Below are positions 1 to 24,482 of a stretch of DNA of 64,000 nucleotides, in pieces. Position 1 is the stretch's first letter. Each line of letters opens with the position of its first letter. The notes beneath the pieces are model-generated. The model was not told the DNA's origin. It ran no database searches and worked only from the letters and a program-made list of their open reading frames with translations. Source of the stretch: Patescibacteria group bacterium (lineage in GTDB: Bacteria; Patescibacteriota; Microgenomatia; UBA8517); assembly GCA_041742135.1 (NCBI GenBank), contig JBGSJG010000001.1, positions 67,151 to 131,150 of the forward strand, in the 5' to 3' direction. The translations under genes and the position numbers were made by a program.

Positions 1-1119
1 TTTTTTAGCGCGGACATCTGGACTTCCGACGTTGTATGGCAAATTGTATGGAGAGTTTTCTTTTCGACTTTAGCGCTAAGCTTATTAACTATCTATGCCG
101 CCTCCAAAATGCCGCATGCGTTTGCTTCTCCCATAGATATCATCGCGTCGAAGACAAGATGGCTTCTTTCGCCGTTTGCAATATTAAGCATTACTCTTAG
201 TGTCATTTTGAGCCTATTTTTAATTATTCAGGTAAAATTTTTGGGGGTTAACACCCTAAACGACCTGACGGCTTTTGGAATCCCTACCTTTTCTGAATAC
301 GTACGGCGCGGTTTTTTTGAACTATTATTTGTCACATTTATTGTCTATGGAGTGTCGGGTGCGGGCCTAGTTCTTTATCGAAATAATAAAGCAAGCAAGA
401 TTCATTTGTATACTAATTCTTTGCTAGTGGTTTTAAATATTCTTTTGGCAGCCTCAGCCCAAAGAAGAGTTCAGCTTTACACTCTTGAGCACGGGCTTAC
501 TCACATGCGAATTTACGGGACGATGTTTTTGTGGATTATTGTTTTACTTCTCGTTACGCTCCTTGCAAGGTATATTATCAAAACTCAAAAACTTCATCTT
601 ATTGAACTTGTTGGAGGAAGCCTCATTGTCCTACTCTTTTCTGTGGCCAATACAGATTATATTTTGGCACACATATCTCCACCCACGGTTAACCGCGAAG
701 TGGATTATAACTACTTGGCCCGTCTTTCAGCAGACGAAGCAGCTACTTGGATAGACGTAATCGAAACGGCCCAAAAAGAAACATTGCCACTTTTGTCACG
801 CGAGGCCCTAACAAGCGAGGAAAAAATAAAAATTGTTCGCACTAGCTGGGCCGTAAATAATGTATATTCTTCAATCGGCAGATTATCTTCTAAATATGGC
901 CCAGAAAGTGAGTCTGATCTGTTTTCTGATTACAATTTTTCTCGATATAAAAAATATACGATTTTGGATTACAACATAAGTGAAGCCAAGGCTTATCAAC
1001 TGGTAAAGGAGCGAACTAACTTCTCAGAACTAAAAGAGTCAAGAAAAGCATTCGAAGACGCAGCTATGAGCCCACGCGTTTACGATTCATTGCCTCGGGA
1101 CATTTATCAGTTTAACTAA
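1..1119 (+). CDS. Polytopic membrane protein of unknown function, 5' partial. The frame is open from base 1, so the gene continues upstream of the window.
   Basis: The ORF track gives 109..1119. The same frame has no stop back to position 1. There are several N-terminal hydrophobic helices followed by a soluble C-terminal region. No family was recognised. Confidence 0.45.
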   Translation, partial: FFSADIWTSDVVWQIVWRVFFSTLALSLLTIYAASKMPHAFASPIDIIASKTRWLLSPFAILSITLSVILSLFLIIQVKFLGVNTLNDLTAFGIPTFSEYVRRGFFELLFVTFIVYGVSGAGLVLYRNNKASKIHLYTNSLLVVLNILLAASAQRRVQLYTLEHGLTHMRIYGTMFLWIIVLLLVTLLARYIIKTQKLHLIELVGGSLIVLLFSVANTDYILAHISPPTVNREVDYNYLARLSADEAATWIDVIETAQKETLPLLSREALTSEEKIKIVRTSWAVNNVYSSIGRLSSKYGPESESDLFSDYNFSRYKKYTILDYNISEAKAYQLVKERTNFSELKESRKAFEDAAMSPRVYDSLPRDIYQFN

Positions 1120-1123
1120 ACGC

Positions 1124-1603
1124 TTACCACCTGAAGTGAGAAAATGCTCGGTTGGCTTCTGCGATGCGCTCCATCTCTTCGCGCTTTTTAACAGCTCCGC
1201 CTTCATTTTTAACAGCTTCCATAATTTCAGCTGCGAGTTTTTCAGCAAATGTATGATACTGAGAATTAGACCTTCCTCGTGCAGCTTCAATTAACCAACG
1301 AATCGCCAAACTGTCTTGTCGTGGCCCTCGAACTGGAACAGGTACCTGATAAGCCGCACCACCGACACGGCGGGGGCGAACTTCCATTGATGGGCGAATT
1401 ATTCCTATTGCCTCGTGGAATACTTCTAGTGGCTCGCGACCAAGCTCTTTTTTGATAAGCTCAAAAGCTCCATAAACCTGAGATTGTGTTACAGATTTTT
1501 TGCCATCATACATGGCTCGATTTATAAGTTTTGAGACCAAAATATCTTTATAAACTGGATCTTTTTGAACTTTTCTTTTTCTTGCTGGTCCTCGTCTTGG
1601 CAT
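1124..1603 (-). CDS. rpsG: 30S ribosomal protein S7
   Basis: Translation MPRRGPARKRKVQKDPVYKD...YQVPVPV... is a typical S7. It sits immediately downstream of rpsL. Confidence 0.95.
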   Translation of the reverse strand: MPRRGPARKRKVQKDPVYKDILVSKLINRAMYDGKKSVTQSQVYGAFELIKKELGREPLEVFHEAIGIIRPSMEVRPRRVGGAAYQVPVPVRGPRQDSLAIRWLIEAARGRSNSQYHTFAEKLAAEIMEAVKNEGGAVKKREEMERIAEANRAFSHFRW

Positions 1604-1605
1604 AT

Positions 1606-2052
1606 TTAATTAGCTGCTGCAACTGGCGCTGCGGCTGCTCCTCCTCCTTCTCTTTTGGCTCCATAGCGCGATCTGGAAGTCTTTCTTCCTACCACGCCTT
1701 TAGTATCAAGCTTTCCACGAACAACTTGGTAACGAACTCCTGACAAATCTTTTACGCGCCCGGCACGAACCACAACAACCGAGTGCTCAGCCAAGTCATG
1801 GCCTTCTCCCGGGATATAAGCCGTAATTTCTTGTTTATTTGATAACCTGACACGAGCAACTTTGCGAAGTGCCGAATTAGGTTTTCTAGGAGTCATTGTG
1901 CGCACTGCCAAAACAACTCCGCGCTTAAAAGGAGATGAAATGGTTTTGAATTTTCTGTCTTTTGCACTAAACCAGCGCTTGAGAGCCGCGGCTCGCGCCT
2001 TCTTTTTGACGTCTTTTCTACCTTTTCTAACTAGTTGTGATGCTGTTGGCAT
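1606..2052 (-). CDS. rpsL: 30S ribosomal protein S12
   Basis: Translation [18 protein letters not shown]...[18 protein letters not shown]... is a canonical S12. It lies 3 bp downstream of rpoBC. Confidence 0.95.
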
Positions 2053-2054
2053 AA

Positions 2055-5000
2055 TTATATTCTCAAACTGGCTCGCTCAGCGTCTACTGGGATGAGTCGG
2101 CCGATTATAACATTTTCTTTGAGGCCTAGTAACTTGTCCTTTTTACCCATGAGAGCTGCGTTGGCCAAAATGTCCGTTGTTTGCTCAAAGCTGGCTGCTG
2201 ACAACCAACTGCTGGTATAAAGTGCACGGCGGGTAATACCCAAAACTGTCTGGCGCGCGCTCGCCGGCTCTCCACCCGCGGCAAGTACTGCTTCGTTGTC
2301 TTCTTCAAAAGTTGCCTTCTCAACTTGATCTCCAGGCAAAAGGGAAGAGTCACCCGCTGTTGTGATTTTGACTTCATCGCTCATCTTTCTGACCATGACC
2401 TCAAAATGGCGGTCGTTAATCGAAATTCCCTGTGATTCGTAAACAGTCTGCAGTTCACGGACCAAATATTCCTGAGCGGCTTTGAGTCCTCTGATTTGAA
2501 GGATTTCTTTAATATCCAAAAATCCACTTGCGAGCTGAGTTCCTGCGGGTATTAACTGGCCTTCTTCAACCAAAAGTTTGCTGGTTTTAGGAATCATATA
2601 TTCGCGCTCTTCGGCTGGCTTGGTTTCAGTACCGATAAGCTTTACGTTCCAACCATCTTCCAGCTCTTCAATTGCAATCTTGCCTGCAATATCAGAAAGT
2701 GGCGAGAGTGATTTTGGAATTCTAGCCTCAAAAAGCTCCTCGACACGAGGCAAACCTTGGGTAACGTCAACACCGATAACTCCTCCAGAATGCTTGGTTC
2801 TCATGGTCAACTGAGTGCCTGGCTCGCCGATTGACTGAGCTGCGACAACTCCAACTGGAACTCCAATTTCGACGTCTTTTTTGGTAGACAAATCCCAACC
2901 GTAACACTTGGTACAAACACCATACCTAGACTTACAAGTAAGCGGTGAGAAAATTGAAACTGACTCTATTTCGGGAACTTCCCCAATCGCTTTTGCCATT
3001 TTCTCTGTGATAATTTCGCCTTTTTTGGCCAAAACTTCTTTACCATTTACCACATCAGCCGCGGCATAACGGCCCATCAAACGATCAGAAAATGCCTTAG
3101 CTCGCTCAGCTCGATAGATGACCAAAGATTCCTCTGTCTTACAATCAACCTCGCGAACCAAAACGTCGTGGGAAACGTCAACCAAGCGGCGAGTCAAATA
3201 CCCCGCGTCTGCGGTCTTTAGAGCCGTATCGGTCAAACCCTTACGAGATCCACGTCCGCTGGCGACGTATTCGAATACCGAAAGTCCTTCGCGGAAGTTA
3301 CTCTTAACAGGCAATTCGACAATTTTTCCGAGAGGATCCGTCACAAGTCCTCGCATACCCGCCAACTGCTTGATCTGATCGCGCGATGTACGACCGACTT
3401 TTGCATCAATAACCATTCTGACTGGACCATTTGGATCCACAAGCTCCCAAGTGCTGTCGGCAATTTGCTCTGTTGTCTCAATCCAGATAGCTTGAACCAA
3501 GCGTTTCTTTTCTTCGTTTGTAATTAAGCCCTGAGCAAAATTTGTTTCGATGACCGCTGCGCGCTCGTTGGCGGCTTCGATCATTTTGTTCTTTTCAGGA
3601 TGAACCTGAGCGTCGGAAATACCGAAGGAAAGCCCAGAAAGTGTGCCTCCCACAAATCCAATGTCCTTAATGTCGTCAATAAGCTGGATAACACGGTCAT
3701 GCTCGACTCGGCTGAAAGATTCGTCGACCAAGCCTTTGATAAGCCCTGAGTCCACGTTTTGGTTCACATAAGTGAATCCCTCGGGCAAAATTTCATTAAA
3801 CAAAATGCGGCCGACTGTAGTGTCAATTACTTTGCTGCCAATCCTTACACTTATGGTCTGGCGAATTCTGATCTTGCCAACCTGATAAGCAATAATCGCC
3901 TCGCGAGGTCCATAAAAGACAGTGTTGTGTGCTGGGATCTTATCATCCAAGCTTGTAAAGTAATAAACTCCCAAGGCAATTTCTTTTGATGCAGGAGCGG
4001 TCATTGGAACACCGCTTGCGGGGGATAATAAATTGCGATCAGAAAGCATCAAATCACGGGCTTCTTCGATAGCTTTGGTGGAAAGTGGCAAATGAATAGC
4101 CATTTGATCTCCATCAAAGTCTGCATTGTAGCCCTTACAAACTGCTGGATGGATTCGAATTGCGCTTCCTTCAATCAAAACCGGATAGAAAGCTTGAATA
4201 CCAAGTTTATGTAAAGTAGGTGCACGATTAAGCAAAACCGGGTGATTTTTGGTAATTTCTTCCAAAATATCAAACACCTCCGGCGGTCGCCTCTCGAGCA
4301 TGTTCTTGGCGGACTTCACATTTGGCGCAATACCTCGAGTAATCATTTCGCGAAGCACAAATGGCTTGGCAATTTCAAGCATCATGTCTTTTGGAATACC
4401 ACACTGGTTAAGCTTAAGCTCTGGTCCAACAACGATGACTGAACGTCCGGAATAATCCACGCGCTTACCCAAAAGATTTTGGCGGAATCGGCCTTGTTTA
4501 CCCTTGAGCATGTCTGACAGTGAGCGAAGCGGCTGCCTGCCTCGGCCACGGCGAGTGGCTTTTCTTTGCGATGCGTCAATCAATGAGTCCACTGACTCCT
4601 GAAGCATGCGCTTTTCATTACGCAGAATAATCTCAGGAGCACCAAGATTAATTAAGTGCTTTAGACGATTGTTGCGATTTATTACTCGGCGATACAAATC
4701 ATTCAAATCGCTTGTAGCAAAGCGTCCACCCGAAAGCTGAACCATAGGTCGAAGGTCAGGTGGCAAAACTGGCAATACTTTGATTACCATCCAAGCTGGG
4801 CTGGTTTTGGCAAGGCGCATGCCATCAACAATCTTTAACCTCTTGGTAAGTTTTAGGTACCTTGCTCCTCGACCTTTAATTGTGTCGATTTCAGATCTAA
4901 CTGACTTGGCTTCCTCATCCAAATTAAGCTTCTCCAAGCCTTCCAAAAGTGCTTCGGCGCCCATTTTTACGGTTACGAAGTCGGAAACTCCATAATTTGC

Positions 5001-8000
5001 TAATTGATCATATTCTTCCTCAGTCAAAAAGCCGTGAGGCTTAACGTCTTTGACAATCGAGCTAAGCTTGCCAAAAAGCTCGTCTGTCTTTTCCCCCGTT
5101 GAGCGCTCTTCTTCGTTTAATGCGGTAATGCGCTTTCTGGTATCAAGCTCCACCTCAGACAAAGCCAAAGCTAACTGATCTTTGTCCTTAGTTCTATTTT
5201 TAACTTTCTCTTCCCTCTCTTTAGCATCAGTTAAAGTCAATTCTCTCTTCTCCTTGTAAGACTGCTTAGATTCGATCGATTTATCAGCACGGATCTTTTC
5301 AAGCGTCTTCATAGCATCTTTTCTGCCATCAACATCGACCGACATGACAAAATATCTTGCAAAATACACAACTTGCTCAACAGCACGAGGAGGCAAATCC
5401 AAAAGCAAAGAAATCTTGCTTGGAGCGCCTTTAAAGTACCAAACGTGTGCAACTGGAGCTGCTAAAGAAATGTGCCCCATTCGCTCGCGTCGTACTCGGG
5501 ATTCTGTGACTTCTACTCCACACTTGTCGCAAACTACGCCTTTATAGCGAATTCTCTTGTACTTTCCACAATAACATTCCCAATCCTTGGTAGGCCCGAA
5601 AATACGCTCATCAAAAAGACCGTCTTTTTCTGGCTTGAGAGTTCGATAATTAATCGTTTCAGGCTTTACCACTTCACCGCGTGACCATGCTCGAATGTCC
5701 TCAGGTGAGGCAAGTTTGATCTGAAGCGAAGTTACATCTTCCAAATTGCGAAGCTGCATCAAAGGATCCGTGTGCTTTTTGTTTGCATCCTGTTTCGAAG
5801 CTTGCTCGCCTTCTTGTACTTCTTCGCCTTCAATTACAGTCTCGGCTGCAGCGACACCTTCAATATTGATCGCCAAGCCCAAAGAATTAAGTTCACGAAT
5901 TAATACTTTAAAGCTTTCAGGAACTTTTGCTTCAGGAATAGGTTCGCCTTTCACAATTGCGCCGAATGCCTGAGCACGGCCGACGATATCGTCAGACTTG
6001 ATAGTCAACATTTCCTGAAGAGTATGGGATGCGCGATGAGCTTCAAGTGCCCAAACTTCCATCTCCCCAAGTCTCTGGCCTCCCATTTGGGCTTTTCCAC
6101 CCAAAGGCTGTTGCGTAACGAGAGAATATGGCCCGGTCGAACGAGCGTGAGTTTTATCCTCAATCATGTGCTTAAGCTTGAGGATATATCCAATTCCTAC
6201 AACGGTTTTTTCTTCAAAGGCCTGACCGGTCTTTCCATCATAGAGCTGGACCTTACCGTCACCTGGAAGACCAACGCTCTCGAGTTCTTTTGAAATAATA
6301 TCTTCAGGAATTTCGTCAAAAACTGGAAGCGCACCTTTTTGGCCTTTTTTGCTCAAGGCCCAACCCAAATGTGTTTCCAAAAGTTGTCCCAAATTCATAC
6401 GTGCCAAAACGGAAAGAGGAGAAATTATAAGATCCACCGGAGTACCATCTTCCAAGTAAGGCATGTCTTCAGTTGGCATGATCTTGGCGATAACACCTTT
6501 GTTTCCATGTCGACCTGCGAGTTTGTCTCCAACGCTGACTTTGCGAAGCTGAGCTACTTTAACAACAACGCTCTTCATAACGCCAGGCCCGAGCTCGTCG
6601 CCATGGTCTTTATCAAGTATTGTTACGTCAACTACAATTCCACCTTCACCATGAGGAACTCGAAGTGAAGTATCGCGAACTTCACGGGCTTTCTCTCCAA
6701 ATATTGCGCGAAGAAGTCGCTCTTCTGAGTTAAGCTCAGTTTCCCCTTTTGGAGCGATCTTGCCTACCAAAATATCATTCGGGCCAACTTCGCTTCCTAC
6801 AACCACAATTCCATCTTCGGCCAAGTTTGAAAGTTCCATTTCAGCAACATTAGGAATATCTCGAGTGAGCTCTTCAGGCCCGAGCTTGGTCTCAACCATG
6901 TCTGCTTGGTATTCCTTAATGTGAATTGAAGTCAAAAGATCATCTTTTACCAAGCGGTTAGAAACCAAAATAGCATCTTCAAAGCCGTACCCACCGTAGT
7001 TTGCATAAGCCACAACTAAGTTTTGACCCAAGGCAAGTTCCCCGCCTTCGCAAGCAGGTCCATCAGCCAAAAGATCGCCTTTTTTAACTTCCTGGCCACT
7101 AATAACTCTAGTCTTTTGATTATAAGAAGTGGATTGCGCAGTACGCTTAAACTTACTTAGTGTGTAGGTCGCCTTATCACCTTTTTCCGAAATCTCAACC
7201 AAATCTGTACTTGTTTGCTCAGTCGGCTTGGCGAGTTTAATCTCAATTTTGTCTGCATCTGAATAACTTACTACTCCGTCATAATCGCTTCTTATTACGC
7301 GTCCCATTGCGCCAGCAACCGTGGCCTCCATTCCAGTTCCCACAACTGGAGCACCCGGATTAACCAAAGGAACAGCTTGGCACTGCATGTTGCTACCCAT
7401 GAGTGCACGGTTACCTTCATCGTGTGACAAAAATGGAATCAAAGATGCGGAAGCACCAAAAACTTGTCTTGGTGAAATATCTACATAATCAAGAAGGGTT
7501 GCGCTTCCTTCCAAAAACTCTCCGCGAAGCCTATAAGGTACGCGATCAGCTGTAATAAACCCCTTCGCGTCCACCGGAACATTGCTATGACTGATGTGAG
7601 CCTCTTGATCGTCGTCTGCCGTCATGTAAACAATTTCATCAGTGACACGGACTGATGTTTTACCATTTTTCTCAATCTTCTCGACTTTTTTGTATGGAGT
7701 TTCCAAAAATCCATACTCATTTACTCGGGCATAAAGCGCAAGATATGTAACAAGTCCGATGTTTGGCCCCTCGGGAGATCTGACTGGATCGATTCGGCCG
7801 TACTGAGAAGAATTGATGTCGCGAATTGAAAAACTTGCGCGCTCACGATTAATTCCGCCGGGTCCCAAAACCGAAACACGCCTTAAGTTGTCAATTTCTG
7901 AAAGTGGATTAGTATCGTCAAGAATTGTAGAGAGCTGATTGGATCTAAAAAACTCATTAATAGCAGCAACCAATGGTCTGGCGTTAATCAAACTTTGAGG

Positions 8001-9083
8001 CATTGGCTTGTCATCTGGAGAAATTAAACTCATTTTCTCCTTCACCGAACGCTCAAGCCGGAGTAAACCAACGCGGAAAGCGTGGGTCGCAACTAATTCG
8101 CCAACTCTCCTAAGCCTACGATTAGAAAGATGGTCAATATCGTCAATGTGGCCTTCACCATTTTGAAGACCAATCAAATATTGAAGTGTGGCAACCACAT
8201 CTTCACGAGTCAAAATCCATGTTTCTTTCTGGTTGGCAAGTGTAAGCTTTAAGCGTTTGTTGATTTTGTACCTTCCTACGCGTCCGAGGTCGTATCTTCG
8301 TGCGTCAAAAAACAAACTGGTAAAAAGTGTCTCGGCATTGTCAATAACTGCCGGCTCCCCAGGACGAAGCTTTCTGTAAATCTCCAAAAGTGCCTCTTCA
8401 CGAGTAGCAGTGTTGTCTTTTTCGATCGTTTTGGCAATATACTTGTGGTTTTCATCACGATCGACCCCAGCGAAGACTTCCTCCATCTGCTTCTGGGAAA
8501 CTCCCAAAGCACGAAGGAGTGTTGCGGCGTTTACTTTTCGTCTCTTGTCGATTCTGGCCGAAATTACGTCGGCGCGAGAAATCTCAAATTCAAGCCATGA
8601 ACCATGTAAGGGGCGGACTTCAGCTGTGTGAAGAAGTCTTCCGGAAGAGCGATCCCGGCTCCCAGCAAAATAAATACCAGGAGAGCGCACAATTTGGTTA
8701 ATGACTGCTCGCTCGATGCCGTTTATGACAAATGTTCCAGAAGAAGTCATTTGTGGAATATTTCCAAAAAAGACTTCTTGGTCGACTGATTCTCCTGTGC
8801 GCTTGTTGATTAAAGTTGTATTAATCTTAAATGGTGCAGAAAAAGTTAGACCCTTTTCTAAAGCGAACTTCGGAGAATTTTTAGGAGCTTCTAGGGTATG
8901 TTCCCCTAAAATAAGCTGCCAATTTTTACCTGTAAAATCGTCAATTGGGGTAATTTGGGCAATTTCCTGAGAAATTCCCTCGGTTAAAAACCAATCCCAG
9001 CTGTCTCTTTGAACCAACGCAAGATCAAGTTTGGGGAGATCTTTTTCATCTTTTCCAAAGTTTCTTCGTTGTGCTTTAAGCAT
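2055..9083 (-). CDS. rpoBC: DNA-directed RNA polymerase beta-beta' fusion: a single 2342-aa ORF spanning rpoB and rpoC
   Basis: The N-terminal half carries rpoB motifs (…[21 protein letters not shown]…, …NMQCQAVPL…). A linker …[23 protein letters not shown]… has no stop. The C-terminal half starts with rpoC motifs (…[43 protein letters not shown]…[10 protein letters not shown]…). Confidence 0.9.
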
Positions 9084-9164
9084 GAGGTAATATTTGGCCT
9101 TTTGTACGCAAAAACTCGCCCCGTGAGAAGCGAGACTAGCCTACATTTAGTACGCCTATAGGGC

Positions 9165-9192
9165 AGTATATAAGAAAATAGCAATTTGTCAA
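9165..9192 (-). promoter_or_regulatory. Candidate sigma70-type promoter for rpoBC: -35 TTGACA, a 16-nt spacer and -10 TATACT, read on the minus strand
   Basis: Reverse complement of 9187..9192 is TTGACA and of 9165..9170 is TATACT. This lies in the 116-bp gap upstream of the rpoBC ATG, leaving a leader of about 75 nt. Confidence 0.45.
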
Positions 9193-9199
9193 CAGCTTC

Positions 9200-10123
9200 T
9201 TAACTGCGAGATTTAAGATGGTCAGGCAGGCAACCATTAAGAGCATCACCGGCATCCCGGACTGAAGGCTGTCCATTTTTAGATACTAAATAATAATGGT
9301 CGTTCATCTCTGGCGCATAGCCACCTGCCGTTATGCCTCCAAAAATTTCAAGCTCGCGCATAGCCTCAAGCGCAAAGAGAGAGCCTTTGTGGCTAGTGAC
9401 AACATTCCATATATCGACCCGTCGCGGGACAATGCCTTTGTGTCTAAGATATGTTAAGTTGGCCACAACTGAGGCGAACGTAGCTCCTGCTGGGTCTGGA
9501 ATTATCACGTCTGCTCCGTCAAGTTGCTTCATCTGCCGAGGCTCAAAATATGATATCCCGATACCGATATCTCCTGGCGTTTCTCCCTTGAGTGGTAACC
9601 TTTTTGTTTGAATTAAAACCTGATCTGTGTACGATACTCCAACCATTTCCCCGGCCACAAGTCCGGCTCTTACTAAACCCAAAACACGCGCGTCTTGGGG
9701 CCTAAAGCCAGATCTCTCAGCAATAGATCTGAAAATATGCTGATTATGACGGTAATACTCGCTACATGCTTTTGGATCCCCATAGAAATCCGTCGTAGCA
9801 ATGTCTGAGATACAAGCAACGGCCTCCTTAATAGTGGGATCGACAAACTCAAGAATAGATATACCTTCAGGTGGTGGGTTATTGAGACCCCATTGATCCT
9901 CTTCGCTAACTCTTGTGCTCTTCATTCCTTTGGCCACGAAAGTGCCACCAAAATTAACAACAACATCAAAGTCACGAGGGCCATGGTACGATTCTTCAAC
10001 TCTGTCAGAAACATCTAGCTTCTCACCATTTTGAGAGGTTTCAATTATTACTTTATGTTCACCCAATAAAACCTCTTCTTGATTTATCCCACTCGTATAA
10101 TGGTAGATATCTGGGTTTGCCAT
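9200..10123 (-). CDS. Uracil phosphoribosyltransferase-like protein with an N-terminal extension of about 110 aa
   Basis: The C-terminal half matches UPRTase signatures (…DVIIPDPAGATFASVVANL…, …PEMNDHYYLV…DAGD…). The ORF track start at 10189 overlaps the upstream gene by 56 nt. An internal Met (MANPDIYHY) at 10123 removes the overlap. Confidence 0.55.
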   Translation of the reverse strand: MANPDIYHYTSGINQEEVLLGEHKVIIETSQNGEKLDVSDRVEESYHGPRDFDVVVNFGGTFVAKGMKSTRVSEEDQWGLNNPPPEGISILEFVDPTIKEAVACISDIATTDFYGDPKACSEYYRHNQHIFRSIAERSGFRPQDARVLGLVRAGLVAGEMVGVSYTDQVLIQTKRLPLKGETPGDIGIGISYFEPRQMKQLDGADVIIPDPAGATFASVVANLTYLRHKGIVPRRVDIWNVVTSHKGSLFALEAMRELEIFGGITAGGYAPEMNDHYYLVSKNGQPSVRDAGDALNGCLPDHLKSRS

Positions 10124-10133
10124 GTTGTTAAAT

Positions 10134-11204
10134 TTATCCTTGACAGATCGTAAACGGCGGCCAATGGCCAAGACGGTTCCACCTATCAACTATTTCTCGT
10201 CTCTTTCTTCCGACCTCAGTATTGTCTTCCGGTACCAATCTGGTCCAGTCTTTTACATTTCCTACACCCAATCTGCCGTCTTCTGTACGCATGGCACCTT
10301 TTCCGTCAATGATAGGGAAAAGGCCTCCAACGTACATTTGGCCACCATTTTCAACACTGTTGGGTTTTGTGTTATTGTGGAACGCTTGCATTGCATATCT
10401 TGTCGCCGCCAAACCGATCGCATGGGGAGCTTTAAAGATCACACTATCACCATATCTTTCAGCCCAATTACGCAGTATTTGCATCGTCGCTCTCGCGGTG
10501 CTTCCCGTAGCAAAAGTATCATCAACCAGCAAGACTCTGCCGAATAGACTAGGAATATTACCTAAACGACCACCTATGTAAACCTTACCCTTTGGTGTAA
10601 CTATTCGCTTGGTTTCAATACATGCCCTCATGTATTCGTTAGGTGCTATTCCTGAGTCTTCCATGGCAAGCTCAACGACAGCTTGCGGAAAAAGTCCACC
10701 TCCCAGAGGGAAAACAAAAAGCATATCCCCCCTAGAAAAAATTTCAGGATCAGCTTTTTGTGCATCGCTTATAAATTCACTCGCAACATGCTTTAAGACT
10801 AAAGCCGCGTTCTCTTGATAAAGTGCCCGTTGTTCCGGATCACTACTATTCCCGTCGTTGGCAAGCTGCGTGAGTGTCGATAAACTCTGATTTATCTCTT
10901 GTGCAGCCTGCTCCTGCTCAGGCTTTTCTGCTATCTGAAGCACGGTTCCATGCTCAGTAGTCCTTCGATCGCCAAGACCCATATCCGCCTGACTCCCGAG
11001 CATTGCATCTGCCGAAGGAAAACGAAATCTGCAGTCATAATAACTTTCTTCTCCAACTAGTGGCGGCTCCTTTAAAACAATCCCCATTCTGCCAGGAACA
11101 CTATCAGATTTAACTATCTTATGATCTTTTTTTCTGATTAACCCCGCAATTCTTTCTATCATTTCAAAAAAAGAGCCTTTCGGCTCTATTTCCCTCCTTT
11201 CCAA
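10134..11204 (-). CDS. Type I phosphoribosyltransferase-domain protein with an N-terminal extension of about 170 aa; specificity unknown
   Basis: It carries the PRPP-binding motif VLLVDDTFATGSTA, typical of type I PRTases. The N-terminal region has no recognised family. Confidence 0.5.
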   Translation of the reverse strand: MERREIEPKGSFFEMIERIAGLIRKKDHKIVKSDSVPGRMGIVLKEPPLVGEESYYDCRFRFPSADAMLGSQADMGLGDRRTTEHGTVLQIAEKPEQEQAAQEINQSLSTLTQLANDGNSSDPEQRALYQENAALVLKHVASEFISDAQKADPEIFSRGDMLFVFPLGGGLFPQAVVELAMEDSGIAPNEYMRACIETKRIVTPKGKVYIGGRLGNIPSLFGRVLLVDDTFATGSTARATMQILRNWAERYGDSVIFKAPHAIGLAATRYAMQAFHNNTKPNSVENGGQMYVGGLFPIIDGKGAMRTEDGRLGVGNVKDWTRLVPEDNTEVGRKRREIVDRWNRLGHWPPFTICQG

Positions 11205-11308
11205 TGTTGCTTACGTTTACGCACTAGGAAAAACTTTAAACTTATCCCTGAGGTTCTTCAACGATATTGGTCACTTACTGAAGCCATTGATTGATATATA
11301 ATTATCTT

Positions 11309-12295
11309 TCATCGCAAGTACTTCGCCACATTTTGATTGTGCTCCGAGAGGGTCTTGGCGTAATGAATATTTCCTTCAGAGTCGTGAATATAAAACATAT
11401 AATCCGTTTCTGATGGGTTTATTGCAGCGTTTAGCGAAGTGAGCCCCGGGTTTGCAATCGGCGCAGGCGGAACGCCAGTAATTTGGTAAGTGTTAAACGG
11501 CGAGTCAATTTCCAAATCTGCCCGAAGTGGCGGGACCCACCAGTCACACTCAACTTTTGCCTTACACCTTATTGTCCCCAATGCATACTGGGCGGTCGCA
11601 TCGGCCTGAAGTGGCCAACCCATATCTATTCTATTTAATAAAATCCCAGCCACAACGGGTCGCTCGTCGGCAGTTAACGTCTCCCGCTCTATTATTGAAG
11701 CCAAAACAATGGCCTCATTTATGTCTAGGCCACTCTTTTGATTGTATTTAAACTGCGTATCAAAGTTCGCAGTCAATTTATTAATGACTGTTTGGGCAGA
11801 TGCGTCTTTGGGAAACAAATACGTGTCGGGGAAAAGGCGTCCTTCTAGATCCGTGCTAAGACTTAAAAATTCCTCAGTAAACTCGCTGGCGGCAGAGCCC
11901 GTTAGGCCAAAAGCATCGATAAAACGCGAGCTGTATTGTTCACGCCTTAAGCCTTCGGGGATTGTTACCCAGATTTCTCTGGGGCCCTTTTTAAGTAAGG
12001 ACATAAGATTCTCGATGTCCAAATTTGCGGGAATTTGAAATTCTCCCGGGGGGATATTCCCAGAGATGCCGTTTATTTGAGTGTAAACCTTAAATGCCAG
12101 GGCATTTTTGATTAAGCCCGCTTCGGCCAAGTCAGTGGCAATTTTAGTGGCGCTACTTCCACGAGTAATAATAAAGCGCTTCTCTGTTGGGTCACTTGAA
12201 GGAGCGGCCGTCTGCGACAAATACCAGAAAACGCTAAAAATACTGGTTAAAATAACCAACACTCCAAAAAATACAAATACTAGGTATTTTCGCAT
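11309..12295 (-). CDS. mltG: Endolytic murein transglycosylase MltG (YceG family)
   Basis: An N-terminal TM helix is followed by a YceG-like domain (…FNTYQITGVPPAPIANPG…). Confidence 0.8.
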   Translation of the reverse strand: MRKYLVFVFFGVLVILTSIFSVFWYLSQTAAPSSDPTEKRFIITRGSSATKIATDLAEAGLIKNALAFKVYTQINGISGNIPPGEFQIPANLDIENLMSLLKKGPREIWVTIPEGLRREQYSSRFIDAFGLTGSAASEFTEEFLSLSTDLEGRLFPDTYLFPKDASAQTVINKLTANFDTQFKYNQKSGLDINEAIVLASIIERETLTADERPVVAGILLNRIDMGWPLQADATAQYALGTIRCKAKVECDWWVPPLRADLEIDSPFNTYQITGVPPAPIANPGLTSLNAAINPSETDYMFYIHDSEGNIHYAKTLSEHNQNVAKYLR

Positions 12296-12312
12296 ATGAA
12301 GATTGTAACAGA

Positions 12313-12510
12313 TTATACTTCGCTAATTAGAGCGCGGCGGAAATGGCCTTTGGCGTCTTTAATATAAATGCGGCCACATTTTTTGCAAGTGATTTTCTTG
12401 CCCAACTTATGGCTTTCTTCTTTAGCCCCGATCAGAGGCTGACTACAACCCACACAGCGCCCTTGTGAAAGTAACCAAGCTTGGATAGGTGCTATAACGT
12501 TTTTGATCAT
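12313..12510 (-). CDS. Small zinc-ribbon protein (two CxxC pairs), unknown function
   Basis: Motifs CVGCSQ…CKKCGR. It is 65 aa long and lies between mltG and ruvX. Confidence 0.4.
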   Translation of the reverse strand: MIKNVIAPIQAWLLSQGRCVGCSQPLIGAKEESHKLGKKITCKKCGRIYIKDAKGHFRRALISEV

Positions 12511-21455: not shown

Positions 21456-22175
21456 TTAATCTGTAAATTCAAAGGTGGAGAGGATTTGATTAACTGAGTC
21501 GATAGATGCAGATTTATTAACCATAATCTCAAGTCCTCCAGAAATATAAGGAACATGGTAAATATCAAATTTCACTTGGGATGAAACGGAGGTATATTTG
21601 GTTGCTTCTTTCTGGCCAACTGATGCACTGCTACTTTTCCAATCTGAAGTTGGAGTTGGAGCAATCAACAGATTAAAATGCTGTATATCAATCACCCGAT
21701 CCACGTACTCTAAGTTACCAAGTGCATAAATCAAAATATTGTTGGTTTGTGAGTATACGGCTCCGCCCGCATCTGCATCATAACCTTGGATAACGAAATC
21801 AAGAGGGTAGCTAAAACTATAGTTATATGCCGTATTTGAATAACTCTTCCAATCGCTCATGCCGACTTCCTCTGAGGGTTCAAGACTTACTGATGATTCT
21901 TCCACCACAGCTTTTGCAGTTGGTGAAGGCTCTGTGATTTGCGGTTCGGTTTTGCTGGTCACTACAAGAACCAAAGCTACAATAATTAGCAGTAGGATTG
22001 CCACAATTCCCACAAGAACCATTGCAATCGTGTTTTTAGATTTTGGAGGTTCTGGGGTTGGTGGGACTATGGGTACTTCAGGAATTACTGGCTCGGCTAC
22101 TGGCAATTGTCCGGTTGGGGTAACTGGAACTACTGCTGGTGTAGTTTCTGGAGTTGGGTTTTGATCTGGGTTCAT
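21456..22175 (-). CDS. N-anchored bitopic protein, paralogue 1 of a tandem family. It has a Pro-rich cytoplasmic N-terminal tail, a TM helix, an extracytoplasmic domain and a conserved C-terminal ILSTFEFTD.
   Basis: Translation MNPDQNPTPETTPAVVPVTPTGQLPV…KSKNTIAMVLVGIVAILLLIIVALVLVV…SVNQILSTFEFTD. Confidence 0.7.
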   Translation of the reverse strand: MNPDQNPTPETTPAVVPVTPTGQLPVAEPVIPEVPIVPPTPEPPKSKNTIAMVLVGIVAILLLIIVALVLVVTSKTEPQITEPSPTAKAVVEESSVSLEPSEEVGMSDWKSYSNTAYNYSFSYPLDFVIQGYDADAGGAVYSQTNNILIYALGNLEYVDRVIDIQHFNLLIAPTPTSDWKSSSASVGQKEATKYTSVSSQVKFDIYHVPYISGGLEIMVNKSASIDSVNQILSTFEFTD

Positions 22176-22178
22176 GGT

Positions 22179-23231
22179 TTAATCAGTAAATTCAAAAGTG
22201 GAAAGAATTTGTGACGCAACTGAGTTACTGTTTGGTTCAGAATAATTAATAAAATAAAATACTGTCTTGTCACTATTTGCAAAAAATAGCACCGTTGTGC
22301 CCCCGTTGGTTATTGTCTGTGCATTAACTCCGTCAATTAAAGTTACCGACTCCACTGAATCGCCATTCTTAAATAAAGTGCTGTTAAACTCGCTCCACTC
22401 TTCGAATGTTGGCTTGTCTGGAATTTCCGAACCAACCACAGAGATCGCGATATAAGAATTTGGCTCAGCCGGGTCAGAAAAAACAAATATAGCACTTGTA
22501 TCCGTTTCAGCTTCTTCTCGGGTCACGCTCCAAGTGTCTGGGTGGTTTACCTCAAAACCGTAATCCGAATTTGAAAAAGCCAACCAATTGGATGGGGGTT
22601 CAAAGTTTTGTAAATTTTGTTGGACATCTTCGCCATTTTCAATCTCCGCTTCCGATTGTCTGTTGTCGACCAACTTATTGTCGCTGTCGTATGTGCTTAC
22701 AATCTTTTGCTTTAGATTTTCGACGTCGATATCAAAAGAAGGAGAGATGGCTTTTCCGTGTATGTCCTTTGCGTCTATTTCCCAAGCATCCCCTTCGCTC
22801 CCCGTGACAACTAAGTACTGATTATTATCTTTTTTATCCACCACCACCCCTACCCAATCCTGCTTCGTTTGCTCCGCACTGCCGGGGCCCACAAACAAAA
22901 CTACATCTCCAACCTTAGGTTGCCCAAAACGGTACGACAGTTTTTCGATCCACACCTGAGAGCTATCGGTAAGTAAAAGATTACTATCCTTTGCACTTAT
23001 GCGATATGGAGAAAGGACAAAGACATACAAAGTCATTCCCAAAGCAAGCAAAACCAAAACTGCACCAATAATCATGAATATTTTTCTTTTAGATTTTGGC
23101 TTTTCGGGAGTTGGGGAAATTTCAGGTTGAATTTCAGTCGTCGGAACGGCAACTGGTAATTGTCCGCCGGTTGGACTAACAGGAGCTACTGCTGGTGTAG
23201 TCTCTGGAGTTGGGTTTTGATCTTGGTTCAT
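22179..23231 (-). CDS. N-anchored bitopic protein, paralogue 2 (ILSTFEFTD family)
   Basis: It has the same MNQDQNPTPETTPAV… Pro-rich tail plus TM architecture and ends …SVASQILSTFEFTD. It is 3 bp from the neighbouring paralogue. Confidence 0.7.
   Translation of the reverse strand: MNQDQNPTPETTPAVAPVSPTGGQLPVAVPTTEIQPEISPTPEKPKSKRKIFMIIGAVLVLLALGMTLYVFVLSPYRISAKDSNLLLTDSSQVWIEKLSYRFGQPKVGDVVLFVGPGSAEQTKQDWVGVVVDKKDNNQYLVVTGSEGDAWEIDAKDIHGKAISPSFDIDVENLKQKIVSTYDSDNKLVDNRQSEAEIENGEDVQQNLQNFEPPSNWLAFSNSDYGFEVNHPDTWSVTREEAETDTSAIFVFSDPAEPNSYIAISVVGSEIPDKPTFEEWSEFNSTLFKNGDSVESVTLIDGVNAQTITNGGTTVLFFANSDKTVFYFINYSEPNSNSVASQILSTFEFTD
23066..23138. repeat. Exact 73-bp repeat, second copy at 24322..24394. 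It encodes the identical …EIQPEISPTPEKPKSKRKIFMIIGA… segment of paralogues 2 and 3.
   Basis: Base-by-base comparison in the window gives identical 73-mers. Flanking sequence diverges. Confidence 0.8.
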
Positions 23232-23234
23232 GGT

Positions 23235-24482
23235 TTAGTCAGTAAATTCAAAGGTGGAAAGGATTTGGTTTAGAAAATCATTGCTTTCCCCACCTGAAGT
23301 CTTAGTTAGCAAAAAGATCTGACTTCCTCCTCCTGGAATCACGACGTATGTCATTCCATTACTGCCTGAGTCGTCAGCGTTTACAACCAACGCATTTACC
23401 CCGTCAACACCAATCTCTTCGTAAGTAAGCTCGTATGTGCTCAAATCAAATTTCTCGGCTAACCATTCTCTGCGAGAACCACCTGAATAATCATCGTATA
23501 AAGTGATAGTAAAGCCAGCTCCACAGTAAGGCCCGCTACAATTTAAAAACGATGCTTTACTGCCTTTCTGTGTCGCTTCATCGTTTAACTGATAATAATC
23601 AGGGTACTTTACAGAAAAACCAGCCCCGTTGTCTTCGTATTTCAACCAGTCTTCGGTAATCTCAAATTTCGGCGCAGGCACAGGTGAGCTAGCCGCAGAA
23701 GCATTGGAGAATTCAAAAGTGGAGAGGATTTGATCAAATATTTCCATGTCTCTGTTTTTAATTTCTTCTACTTCTTGTGAACTTTTTCCTCCAACACCCC
23801 AAGAAATTATATATTTGGTATCCCCAACAACGGTCCATACCTCTTTTGAATAATTATTTGAAGGTTGATTTTCAATTGTGCGTTCATAAACCAAAGCGTC
23901 TTGCCCATCTAACTTTTGAACCGAAATCGAAGAATAAGCAAAATCTGGAAAATCTTTACCAGTCTGCTCTAATGCTTGACGTTTCTCCTCGAGTGACTTT
24001 CCTTCTGTATAATCTAAATCCTGAATATCAAACGCAATTACAGACCCCCTACCATCTTCCTGTTGATTTTCAGGAAAAGAATTTATTTGATAATAGGATT
24101 TACTAACACCTCTGCCGTACGACCAAACATGCCAATTCTTGGGAATAGACACAGTAAACAAGCCACCACCATTGTAAGTATTCCAATCACCCGTCTCGTC
24201 CTCCATGGTGGCCTCAGGGGTGTTCGTTGGCTCAACCACCCTCTGGTCTTCGGCCGGTTTTTGAATGACTGAAAATGTAAATATCCCCACCGCGCCTAAA
24301 ATCAGCAAAGTTAAGATCGCTCCAATAATCATGAATATTTTTCTTTTAGATTTTGGCTTTTCGGGAGTTGGGGAAATTTCAGGTTGAATTTCAGAGGTCG
24401 GAACTGCAACTGGTAATTGGCCTGTTGGAGTAACTGGAGCTACAGGTGGAACTTGCGAGACTGGGGCTTCTTCTGGATTCAT
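23235..24482 (-). CDS. N-anchored bitopic protein, paralogue 3 (ILSTFEFTD family), with an internally duplicated extracytoplasmic module
   Basis: It has two copies of the terminal motif (…EIFDQILSTFEFSNASAAS… and C-terminal …FLNQILSTFEFTD). The N-terminal tail and TM are nearly identical to paralogue 2. Confidence 0.7.
   Translation of the reverse strand: MNPEEAPVSQVPPVAPVTPTGQLPVAVPTSEIQPEISPTPEKPKSKRKIFMIIGAILTLLILGAVGIFTFSVIQKPAEDQRVVEPTNTPEATMEDETGDWNTYNGGGLFTVSIPKNWHVWSYGRGVSKSYYQINSFPENQQEDGRGSVIAFDIQDLDYTEGKSLEEKRQALEQTGKDFPDFAYSSISVQKLDGQDALVYERTIENQPSNNYSKEVWTVVGDTKYIISWGVGGKSSQEVEEIKNRDMEIFDQILSTFEFSNASAASSPVPAPKFEITEDWLKYEDNGAGFSVKYPDYYQLNDEATQKGSKASFLNCSGPYCGAGFTITLYDDYSGGSRREWLAEKFDLSTYELTYEEIGVDGVNALVVNADDSGSNGMTYVVIPGGGSQIFLLTKTSGGESNDFLNQILSTFEFTD

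Follow-up and report, generated by a model that had tools for sequence, protein, structure and literature searches.

A fused rpoBC gene inherited within a subclade of Candidatus Woesebacteria

In the literature, natural fusion of rpoB and rpoC, the genes for the β and β′ subunits of RNA polymerase, is named in Helicobacteraceae and Wolbachia only. The gene described here is a fused rpoBC of a Patescibacteria group bacterium (GenBank assembly GCA_041742135.1). It lies on a 64,000-nucleotide stretch of contig JBGSJG010000001.1 (positions 67,151 to 131,150), which is called the window and whose coordinates are used throughout. The closest genome loci come from metagenome-assembled genomes (MAGs) of Candidatus Woesebacteria and Microgenomates, which places the organism among Woesebacteria-type bacteria of the candidate phyla radiation (CPR). 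No paper describing an rpoBC fusion in Woesebacteria, Patescibacteria, or the CPR was found in the literature searched. Fused sequences have been public since the GW2011 MAGs.

RpoBC of Helicobacter and Wolinella (NF007172, PRK09603) is encoded, like the window protein, by a single open reading frame (ORF) with β ahead of β′. In both cases, a linker runs from the C-terminus of β to the N-terminus of β′, and the fusion is fixed in its clade. Sister taxa of Helicobacter have abutting or overlapping rpoB and rpoC, as do those of the fused Woesebacteria. Zakharova 1999 (as cited in PMC1557499) speaks in its title of fused and overlapping genes, and in H. pylori the fused genes reportedly yield one polypeptide (as cited in PMC1557499, PMC9696931). 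The window protein differs in being ~550 amino acids shorter (2342 vs ~2890), and its linker sequence is unrelated.

RpoBC of Wolbachia and the Anaplasmataceae (NF011417, PRK14844; also Candidatus Mesenet, P0202) has the same architecture and is likewise found in a reduced-genome lineage. It belongs to another phylum than the window protein and has an independent origin. Large subunits are also known in split form, as rpoC1 and rpoC2 in cyanobacteria and plastids and as B′/B″ and A′/A″ in archaea. These resemble the rpoBC fusion in that break points can move during evolution, but they reflect fission within a subunit, the opposite direction to fusion between subunits. The engineered E. coli β::β′ fusion (Severinov et al. 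1997, as cited in PMC1750930 and bioRxiv 10.1101/2021.11.05.467461) assembles into a functional enzyme. A tether from the β C-terminus to the β′ N-terminus is therefore compatible with assembly of a working polymerase. That fusion is artificial and without evolutionary history, whereas the Woesebacteria protein is known from its sequence.

The window rpoBC is a single ORF on the minus strand (Table 1). The only stop in its translation is the terminal one, and the two alternative frames over the junction (5600-6000) are packed with stops. A preliminary description, made from the window sequence alone, had reported one uninterrupted 2342-amino acid rpoBC ORF with neither a stop nor a change of frame at the junction. 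The ORF listing, the translation, and the Pfam and NCBIfam matches agree with this, and the junction it quoted is present exactly. An open frame of 2342 codons is beyond chance.

Pfam domains of the RpoB type (Rpb2_1, 2, 3, 45, 6, and 7) are found at residues 69-1074, and those of the RpoC type (Rpb1_1, 2, 3, and 5) at residues 1115-2258. The β module scores 1388.3 bits against the NCBIfam RpoB equivalog NF001616 (cut-off 896; profile positions 2-1095 of 1096), and the RpoB membership family is named NF001616 / TIGR02013. The β′ module scores 1502.1 bits against the RpoC equivalog TIGR02386 (cut-off 963.5; profile positions 2-1138 of 1147). Motifs of β (RHGNKG at 858, GGQRLGEME at 1001) and of β′ (the N-terminal Cys4 zinc motif at 1170, the catalytic NADFDGD at 1653) are intact. 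With β before β′ in one ORF and no stop or frameshift at the junction, the gene belongs to the tethered β-β′ class, which is a class of architecture and not a homology family.

The β′ module has two further peculiarities. Its Rpb1_1 match is 423 residues long, whereas the profile has 312 positions. In this region (window about 4884-5336, minus strand; residues about 1250-1400), an extra Lys/Glu-rich segment of ~110 amino acids is inserted between the zinc motif and the conserved PPDLRP region. The insertion is lineage-specific, and an AF2 fragment model predicts it to be one very long helix. Pfam Rpb1_4 (PF05000) is undetected in the fused Woesebacteria clade, although more distant fused proteins do show a match to it.

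The fusion is inherited and kept in relatives and is not a one-off. An identical 2342-amino acid protein is recorded in NCBI (P0121). A further 62 full-length fused clusters, defined at 90% identity, encode proteins of 2308-2366 amino acids at 70-85% identity, giving at least 63 distinct clusters with P0121 included. Their sources are assemblies from NCBI, JGI, ENA, and Logan, with contigs reaching 0.94 Mb; the contigs that carry P0137, P0141, and P0142 measure 0.90-0.94 Mb. One fused relative was deposited as Candidatus Woesebacteria bacterium GW2011 (KKQ95928.1, KKS97410.1). One Woesebacteria relative carries the UniRef label "Multifunctional fusion protein", and relatives were deposited simply as the β′ or β subunit. 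Such fused genes will be mislabeled by pipelines for annotation and phylogenomics in which RpoB and RpoC are expected as separate markers.

A neighbor-joining (NJ) tree was built from 2248 well-occupied columns, using the fused proteins and the concatenated RpoB and RpoC of unfused loci. All 63 fused sequences fall into a single clade, which is recovered in 100 of 100 bootstraps. This clade groups with unfused Woesebacteria (L002, L003, and L004), again in 100 of 100. The preliminary description had proposed aligning the junction with that of relatives. The alignment shows the fusion to be clade-wide; at the homologous site, rpoB of the next outgroups ends in a stop and rpoC has a start of its own.

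The reach of the fusion depends on how loci are sampled. A scan of genome contigs is biased: among the 80 loci listed, rpoB and rpoC are always in the same frame, and one fused species is represented. In each of the 79 other GTDB loci retrieved, the two genes are separated by a stop. Fused sequences come first in the protein search, and therefore a sample blind to fusion state was drawn, using a degenerate DNA pattern for the rpoB C-terminal PESFKVL[IVM]RELNSL on metagenome contigs. Together with five genome loci (L001-L005), it amounts to 125 loci, of which 108 are unfused, 13 are fused, and 4 are undeterminable. Because all fused loci in this sample except L204 fall within the same fused clade, the fusion is a synapomorphy of one large subclade of uncultivated Woesebacteria and not of all Woesebacteria. 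It is a clean phylogenetic marker for that clade and is kept across most of it.

The junction consists of a linker that is hypervariable in length and sequence. In the fused-clade alignment, the fraction of majority residues is 0.34 in the linker vs 0.92 and 0.87 in the flanks. Glu makes up 19% and Lys 12% of the linker. Its aligned length ranges from ~6 to 57 residues among the fused proteins, and the frame is kept in all of them. Unfused β proteins end in a long acidic C-terminal tail, e.g., ...GPMEVEEVVI(stop), and unfused β′ proteins begin with MEPL (28 cases), MEQL (18), or MDPL (3). Fused proteins have an acidic linker followed by x-DPL, which can be aligned to these β′ N-termini. By this comparison, the linker appears to be made of the acidic C-terminal tail of β and the former spacer.

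The ancestral start of β′ can be placed by the same alignment. It corresponds to T1105, three residues upstream of the point marked as the β/β′ boundary in the preliminary description, which was right about the fusion itself. Thr is the commonest residue at this position, and Met is found there in 1 of 63 fused proteins. In the window, the codon is ACG, one transition from ATG. Another ATG (M1109) lies 4 codons past the ancestral start position.

In unfused relatives, the two genes lie close together. The median distance from rpoB to rpoC is 9 nt in a set of 91 non-redundant unfused relatives. The spacer is 15 nt or shorter in 63 of the 91, ATGA-type overlaps included, and in 20 of those 63 the genes are in frame. 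The fusion had been called notable in this genome background, which needs qualifying: in Woesebacteria-type CPR, rpoB and rpoC usually abut or overlap, and fusion is therefore an easy mutational step.

The preferred reading, held at a probability of about 0.86, is a genuine inherited fusion that arose by stop loss, with a tethered β-β′ product that assembles into core RNA polymerase. In the ancestor of the large Woesebacteria subclade, rpoB and rpoC would have lain a few bases apart in the same frame, and the rpoB stop codon would have been lost. The acidic β tail and the tiny spacer would then have become a flexible linker into the β′ N-terminus. Translation from the rpoB start to the rpoC stop would yield one tethered β-β′ polypeptide. 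This chain would join α2 (and ω, if present) in an otherwise normal core RNA polymerase. The rpoC start codon, once redundant, would have decayed because β′ no longer needed its own initiation, from ATG to ACG in the window. Stop loss followed by start-codon decay is the likely origin of the fusion, and the decay is probably the best sequence-level sign that β′ is not initiated separately. The comparison documents a probable mutational route, from a tiny in-frame spacer through stop loss to start decay.

The alternative that survives best, though unlikely, is that the fused ORF gives two polypeptides, either by internal initiation (e.g., at M1109) or by proteolysis of the acidic linker. M1109 lies just after the ancestral start, and the linker mRNA is A-rich. 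A few fused relatives have Met at the old start, e.g., P0137 with KMDPL. Neither Met is conserved, however: the ancestral position is Met in 1 of 63 fused proteins, and a Met after DPL is found in a minority only. A missing Shine-Dalgarno site is uninformative in a genome that rarely uses such sites. Shine-Dalgarno 4-mer cores precede rpoC in 45 of 91 unfused vs 5 of 11 fused loci, and Glu codons yield such 4-mers anyway. Against proteolysis, no conserved cleavage motif was seen in the hypervariable linker. The H. pylori fusion, which is of homologous type, is made as a single polypeptide according to the accounts in which it is cited (PMC1557499, PMC9696931).

An assembly or sequencing artefact, in which two separate genes were joined by a missed stop or an indel in this one contig, is far less probable. 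Such errors do occur, and L204 is fused only through an A6-to-A7 homopolymer change. However, more than 60 independently assembled relatives have the same architecture with widely differing linkers, and the internal Met has been lost across the fused clade. Twelve contigs encode an identical copy of the fused P0141. In each of five places from different, unrelated samples (two MAG assemblies in NCBI, two metagenomes in JGI, and one assembly in ENA), the gene order is YceG-rpoBC-rpsL-rpsG. Because of the identical NCBI protein, the 62 further clusters, the P0141 replicates, and a frame kept despite the variable linker, an artefact is excluded for the clade. For the window contig, it is very unlikely.

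A 321-amino acid junction query retrieved for the most part short junction-spanning proteins that lie on long contigs, and these were not counted as evidence of fusion. Some of them, such as P0004 and P0010, have Arg/Pro/Ala-rich stretches that look out of frame. Among the 60 PDB matches listed for the junction, there are separate β′ chains and no fused chain.

A decaying or redundant status of the fused gene, with functional separate rpoB and rpoC elsewhere in the genome, would fit a view limited to 64 kb but is highly improbable given the intact catalytic motifs, two modules far above curated equivalog cut-offs, linker flanks ~90% conserved in a clade diverged to 70% identity, and the canonical position ahead of rpsL and rpsG.

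Some points weigh against the inherited, tethered fusion or limit it. By analogy with H. pylori and the engineered E. coli fusion, the product would stay one chain and be functional, and in this lineage the single chain rests on sequence and on such analogy. Linker processing or some internal initiation may be compatible with the sequence. The AF2 model of residues 951-1330 is poor (mean predicted local distance difference test score 61.5, predicted template modeling score 0.40) and renders the linker as a low-confidence coil, a weak hint of a disordered tether. The trees are distance-based NJ trees and not maximum-likelihood trees. The window comes from a MAG-type contig and was judged from assembled sequence.

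The fused clade also contains unfused genes. In a 1437-column alignment, the unfused L152 is sister to the fused L141 in 100 of 100 bootstraps. There, the fused clade is monophyletic with L152 in it (100/100) and not without it (0/100). L152 and L170 share a junction with a stop inside the linker, ...DEKLN(stop) N MATQNMKQTDVV..., while that of L167 differs: ...EKKL(stop), a 4-nt spacer, then MAEYKQNDVV.... L167 is placed inside the fused clade by a shorter 736-column tree only, without bootstrap. All three have a new stop and a new ATG inside the former linker. Because they are nested in the fused clade with a stop in the former linker, these loci indicate that the fused gene has been split again at least once. 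Sister lineages in the fused, unfused, and re-split states offer a natural comparison for the costs and benefits of tethering the catalytic subunits.

L204, conversely, is a fused locus that falls among unfused ones, with L100 as its sister in 100 of 100 bootstraps. Its A6-to-A7 change affects a homopolymer that, in L099 and L100, overlaps the ATGA stop/start. The change reflects either an independent fusion by frameshift or a sequencing error in the homopolymer, the latter being possible because L204 is known from a single contig.

A broader view, possible but doubtful, is that the CPR rpoB-rpoC boundary is an evolutionary toggle and not a rare genomic change that happens once, with repeated fusion and re-splitting and with selection for the fused state. 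It takes L152 and L170, and more weakly (by the short-segment tree) L167, as re-split cases and counts at least four fusions seen in CPR. In tightly packed genomes that are poor in Shine-Dalgarno sites, spacers of 0-15 nt or ATGA overlaps would allow fusion by a single mutation. The fused state would remove separate initiation of β′ and enforce 1:1 stoichiometry.

The Woesebacteria fusion is distinct from the two described types. Against the Helicobacter-type fused model NF007172, the window protein scores 2069 bits, below the cut-off of 5372. Against the Wolbachia-type model NF011417, it scores 1947 bits, below the cut-off of 4632. Because both cut-offs are missed and the fused clade is nested among unfused Woesebacteria, the fusion is judged from its sequence to be independent of both. 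It is thus an independent instance of a known architecture and is neither unprecedented nor categorically new.

Other full-length fused RpoBC proteins are present in databases. They are 2200-2800 amino acids long and have both the Rpb2 and Rpb1 domain sets. They are found in further CPR lineages (P0184-P0186, P0187-P0193, and P0257), in Mycoplasma wenyonii (AFN65042.1) and Candidatus Magnetobacterium casensis, and in one MAG each of Anaerolineaceae and Firmicutes. Candidatus Mesenet also has a full-length fused RpoBC. With it included, the database proteins are P0184-P0193, P0257, P0262, P0403, P0194, P0201, and P0202. At least 17 of the best 150 representatives at 50% identity exceed 2000 amino acids. 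Among other CPR fusions, P0184, P0185, and P0186 group with the unfused L005 (98%), P0187-P0193 form their own clade (100%), and P0257 groups with the unfused L020 (98%). Because they lie on separate branches with unfused sisters, each of the fused lineages outside the Wolbachia type is, by its place in the tree, an independent event. The preliminary description had held natural fusions to be established in few lineages. This is true of the literature, where Helicobacteraceae and Wolbachia are the only ones, but not of the databases, where other CPR, M. wenyonii, and more are found. Fusions are commoner in databases than in the literature. The view of β-β′ fusion as a rare event confined to Helicobacteraceae and Wolbachia is hereby extended to Woesebacteria and other CPR.

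The fused gene is preceded by a promoter and a conserved leader (Table 1). A near-consensus TTGACA-16/17-TATAAT is found upstream of rpoB or rpoBC in fused and unfused Woesebacteria alike, and the promoter and leader layout is also present at L002-L004, L081, L117, L146, L171, L182, and L197. An invariant AGGCGTA(C) lies at the expected transcript start, 5-7 nt past the -10 hexamer, in 55 of 77 loci. Next come a 5′-terminal hairpin, GGCGUAC/GUACGCU, and then a GC-rich hairpin with a T-run, the stem sequence of which is lineage-specific. In several leaders, the hairpin with the T-run is the 5′-terminal hairpin itself. A hairpin with a T-run is present in 37 of 44 leaders vs 3.1 +/- 1.6 in shuffles. 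The rpoB(C) leader looks like a candidate attenuator or autoregulatory leader. No Rfam match at the gathering threshold was found in the window or in the rpoBC leader. The TAGGCGTAC element was also considered as a regulon motif and rejected, since the window contains a single exact copy of it and shows no enrichment.

Table 1. Features of the rpoBC locus in window coordinates
Feature	Position	Strand	Details
Fused rpoBC ORF	2055..9083	minus	2342 aa + stop; TAA at 2057..2055; ATG start
β (RpoB) module, aa 1-1075	5859..9083	minus	NF001616 over aa 5-1075; Pfam Rpb2 domains 1-7
Linker, aa 1076-1104	5772..5858	minus	Acidic, lysine-rich; length and sequence hypervariable across clade
Codon ACG (T1105) at ancestral rpoC ATG position	5769..5771	minus	Placed by alignment to unfused β′ starts
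β′ (RpoC) module, aa 1105-2342, + stop	2055..5771	minus	TIGR02386 over aa 1120-2333; Rpb1 domains; NADFDGD; zinc motif
Sigma-70-type promoter TTGACA-16-TATACT	9165..9192	minus	Best match in 1000-12400, 11/12 positions
Conserved leader	9084..9158	minus	5′ TAGGCGTAC element + hairpin, then GC hairpin with T-run (9134..9115) before ATG
rpsL (S12)	1606..2052	minus	2 nt after rpoBC stop
rpsG (S7)	1124..1603	minus	2 nt after rpsL

Further upstream of rpoBC are genes for YceG, RuvX, and a sortase. Between YceG and rpoBC lie two ORFs of 329 and 356 amino acids (9200-10189 and 10134-11204, minus strand). They have no Pfam match, yet they contain phosphoribosyltransferase-like motifs (LLVDDTFATGSTA; IIPDPAGATFAS). 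The pair looks like a lineage-specific insertion of ~2 kb, because YceG directly adjoins rpoBC in the related L081.

The window also encodes FtsK, RNase J, PNPase, a short IF-2, NusA, DnaK/DnaJ/GrpE/HrcA, MurJ, and a PilN-like protein. Many of its proteins are without a family match, and no tRNA genes were found in it. A strand switch near 46 kb was considered as a replication origin and rejected; there is no dnaA there, and it is flanked by MurJ and the PilN-like gene.

A Shine-Dalgarno-like 4-mer within 20 nt upstream is found at 2 of 27 minus-strand gene starts (1603-46005). A TATAAT-like hexamer lies ~5-12 nt before many ATGs (e.g., 12295, 17459, 26147, 37320, 42884, and 44172). These patterns suggest that leaderless mRNAs may be widespread among the window genes. 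The starts at 22175 and 23231 are directly preceded by almost identical sequences, …CTTTCCAC[T/C]TTTGAATTTACTGA[T/C]TAAACC ATG (21456-24482, minus strand), so the neighboring genes there end in the same peptide. This suggests that the genes at 21456-24482 may be tandem paralogues. One gene of this region has a weak signal-peptidase S26 match, and one has a weak PsbP-like match.

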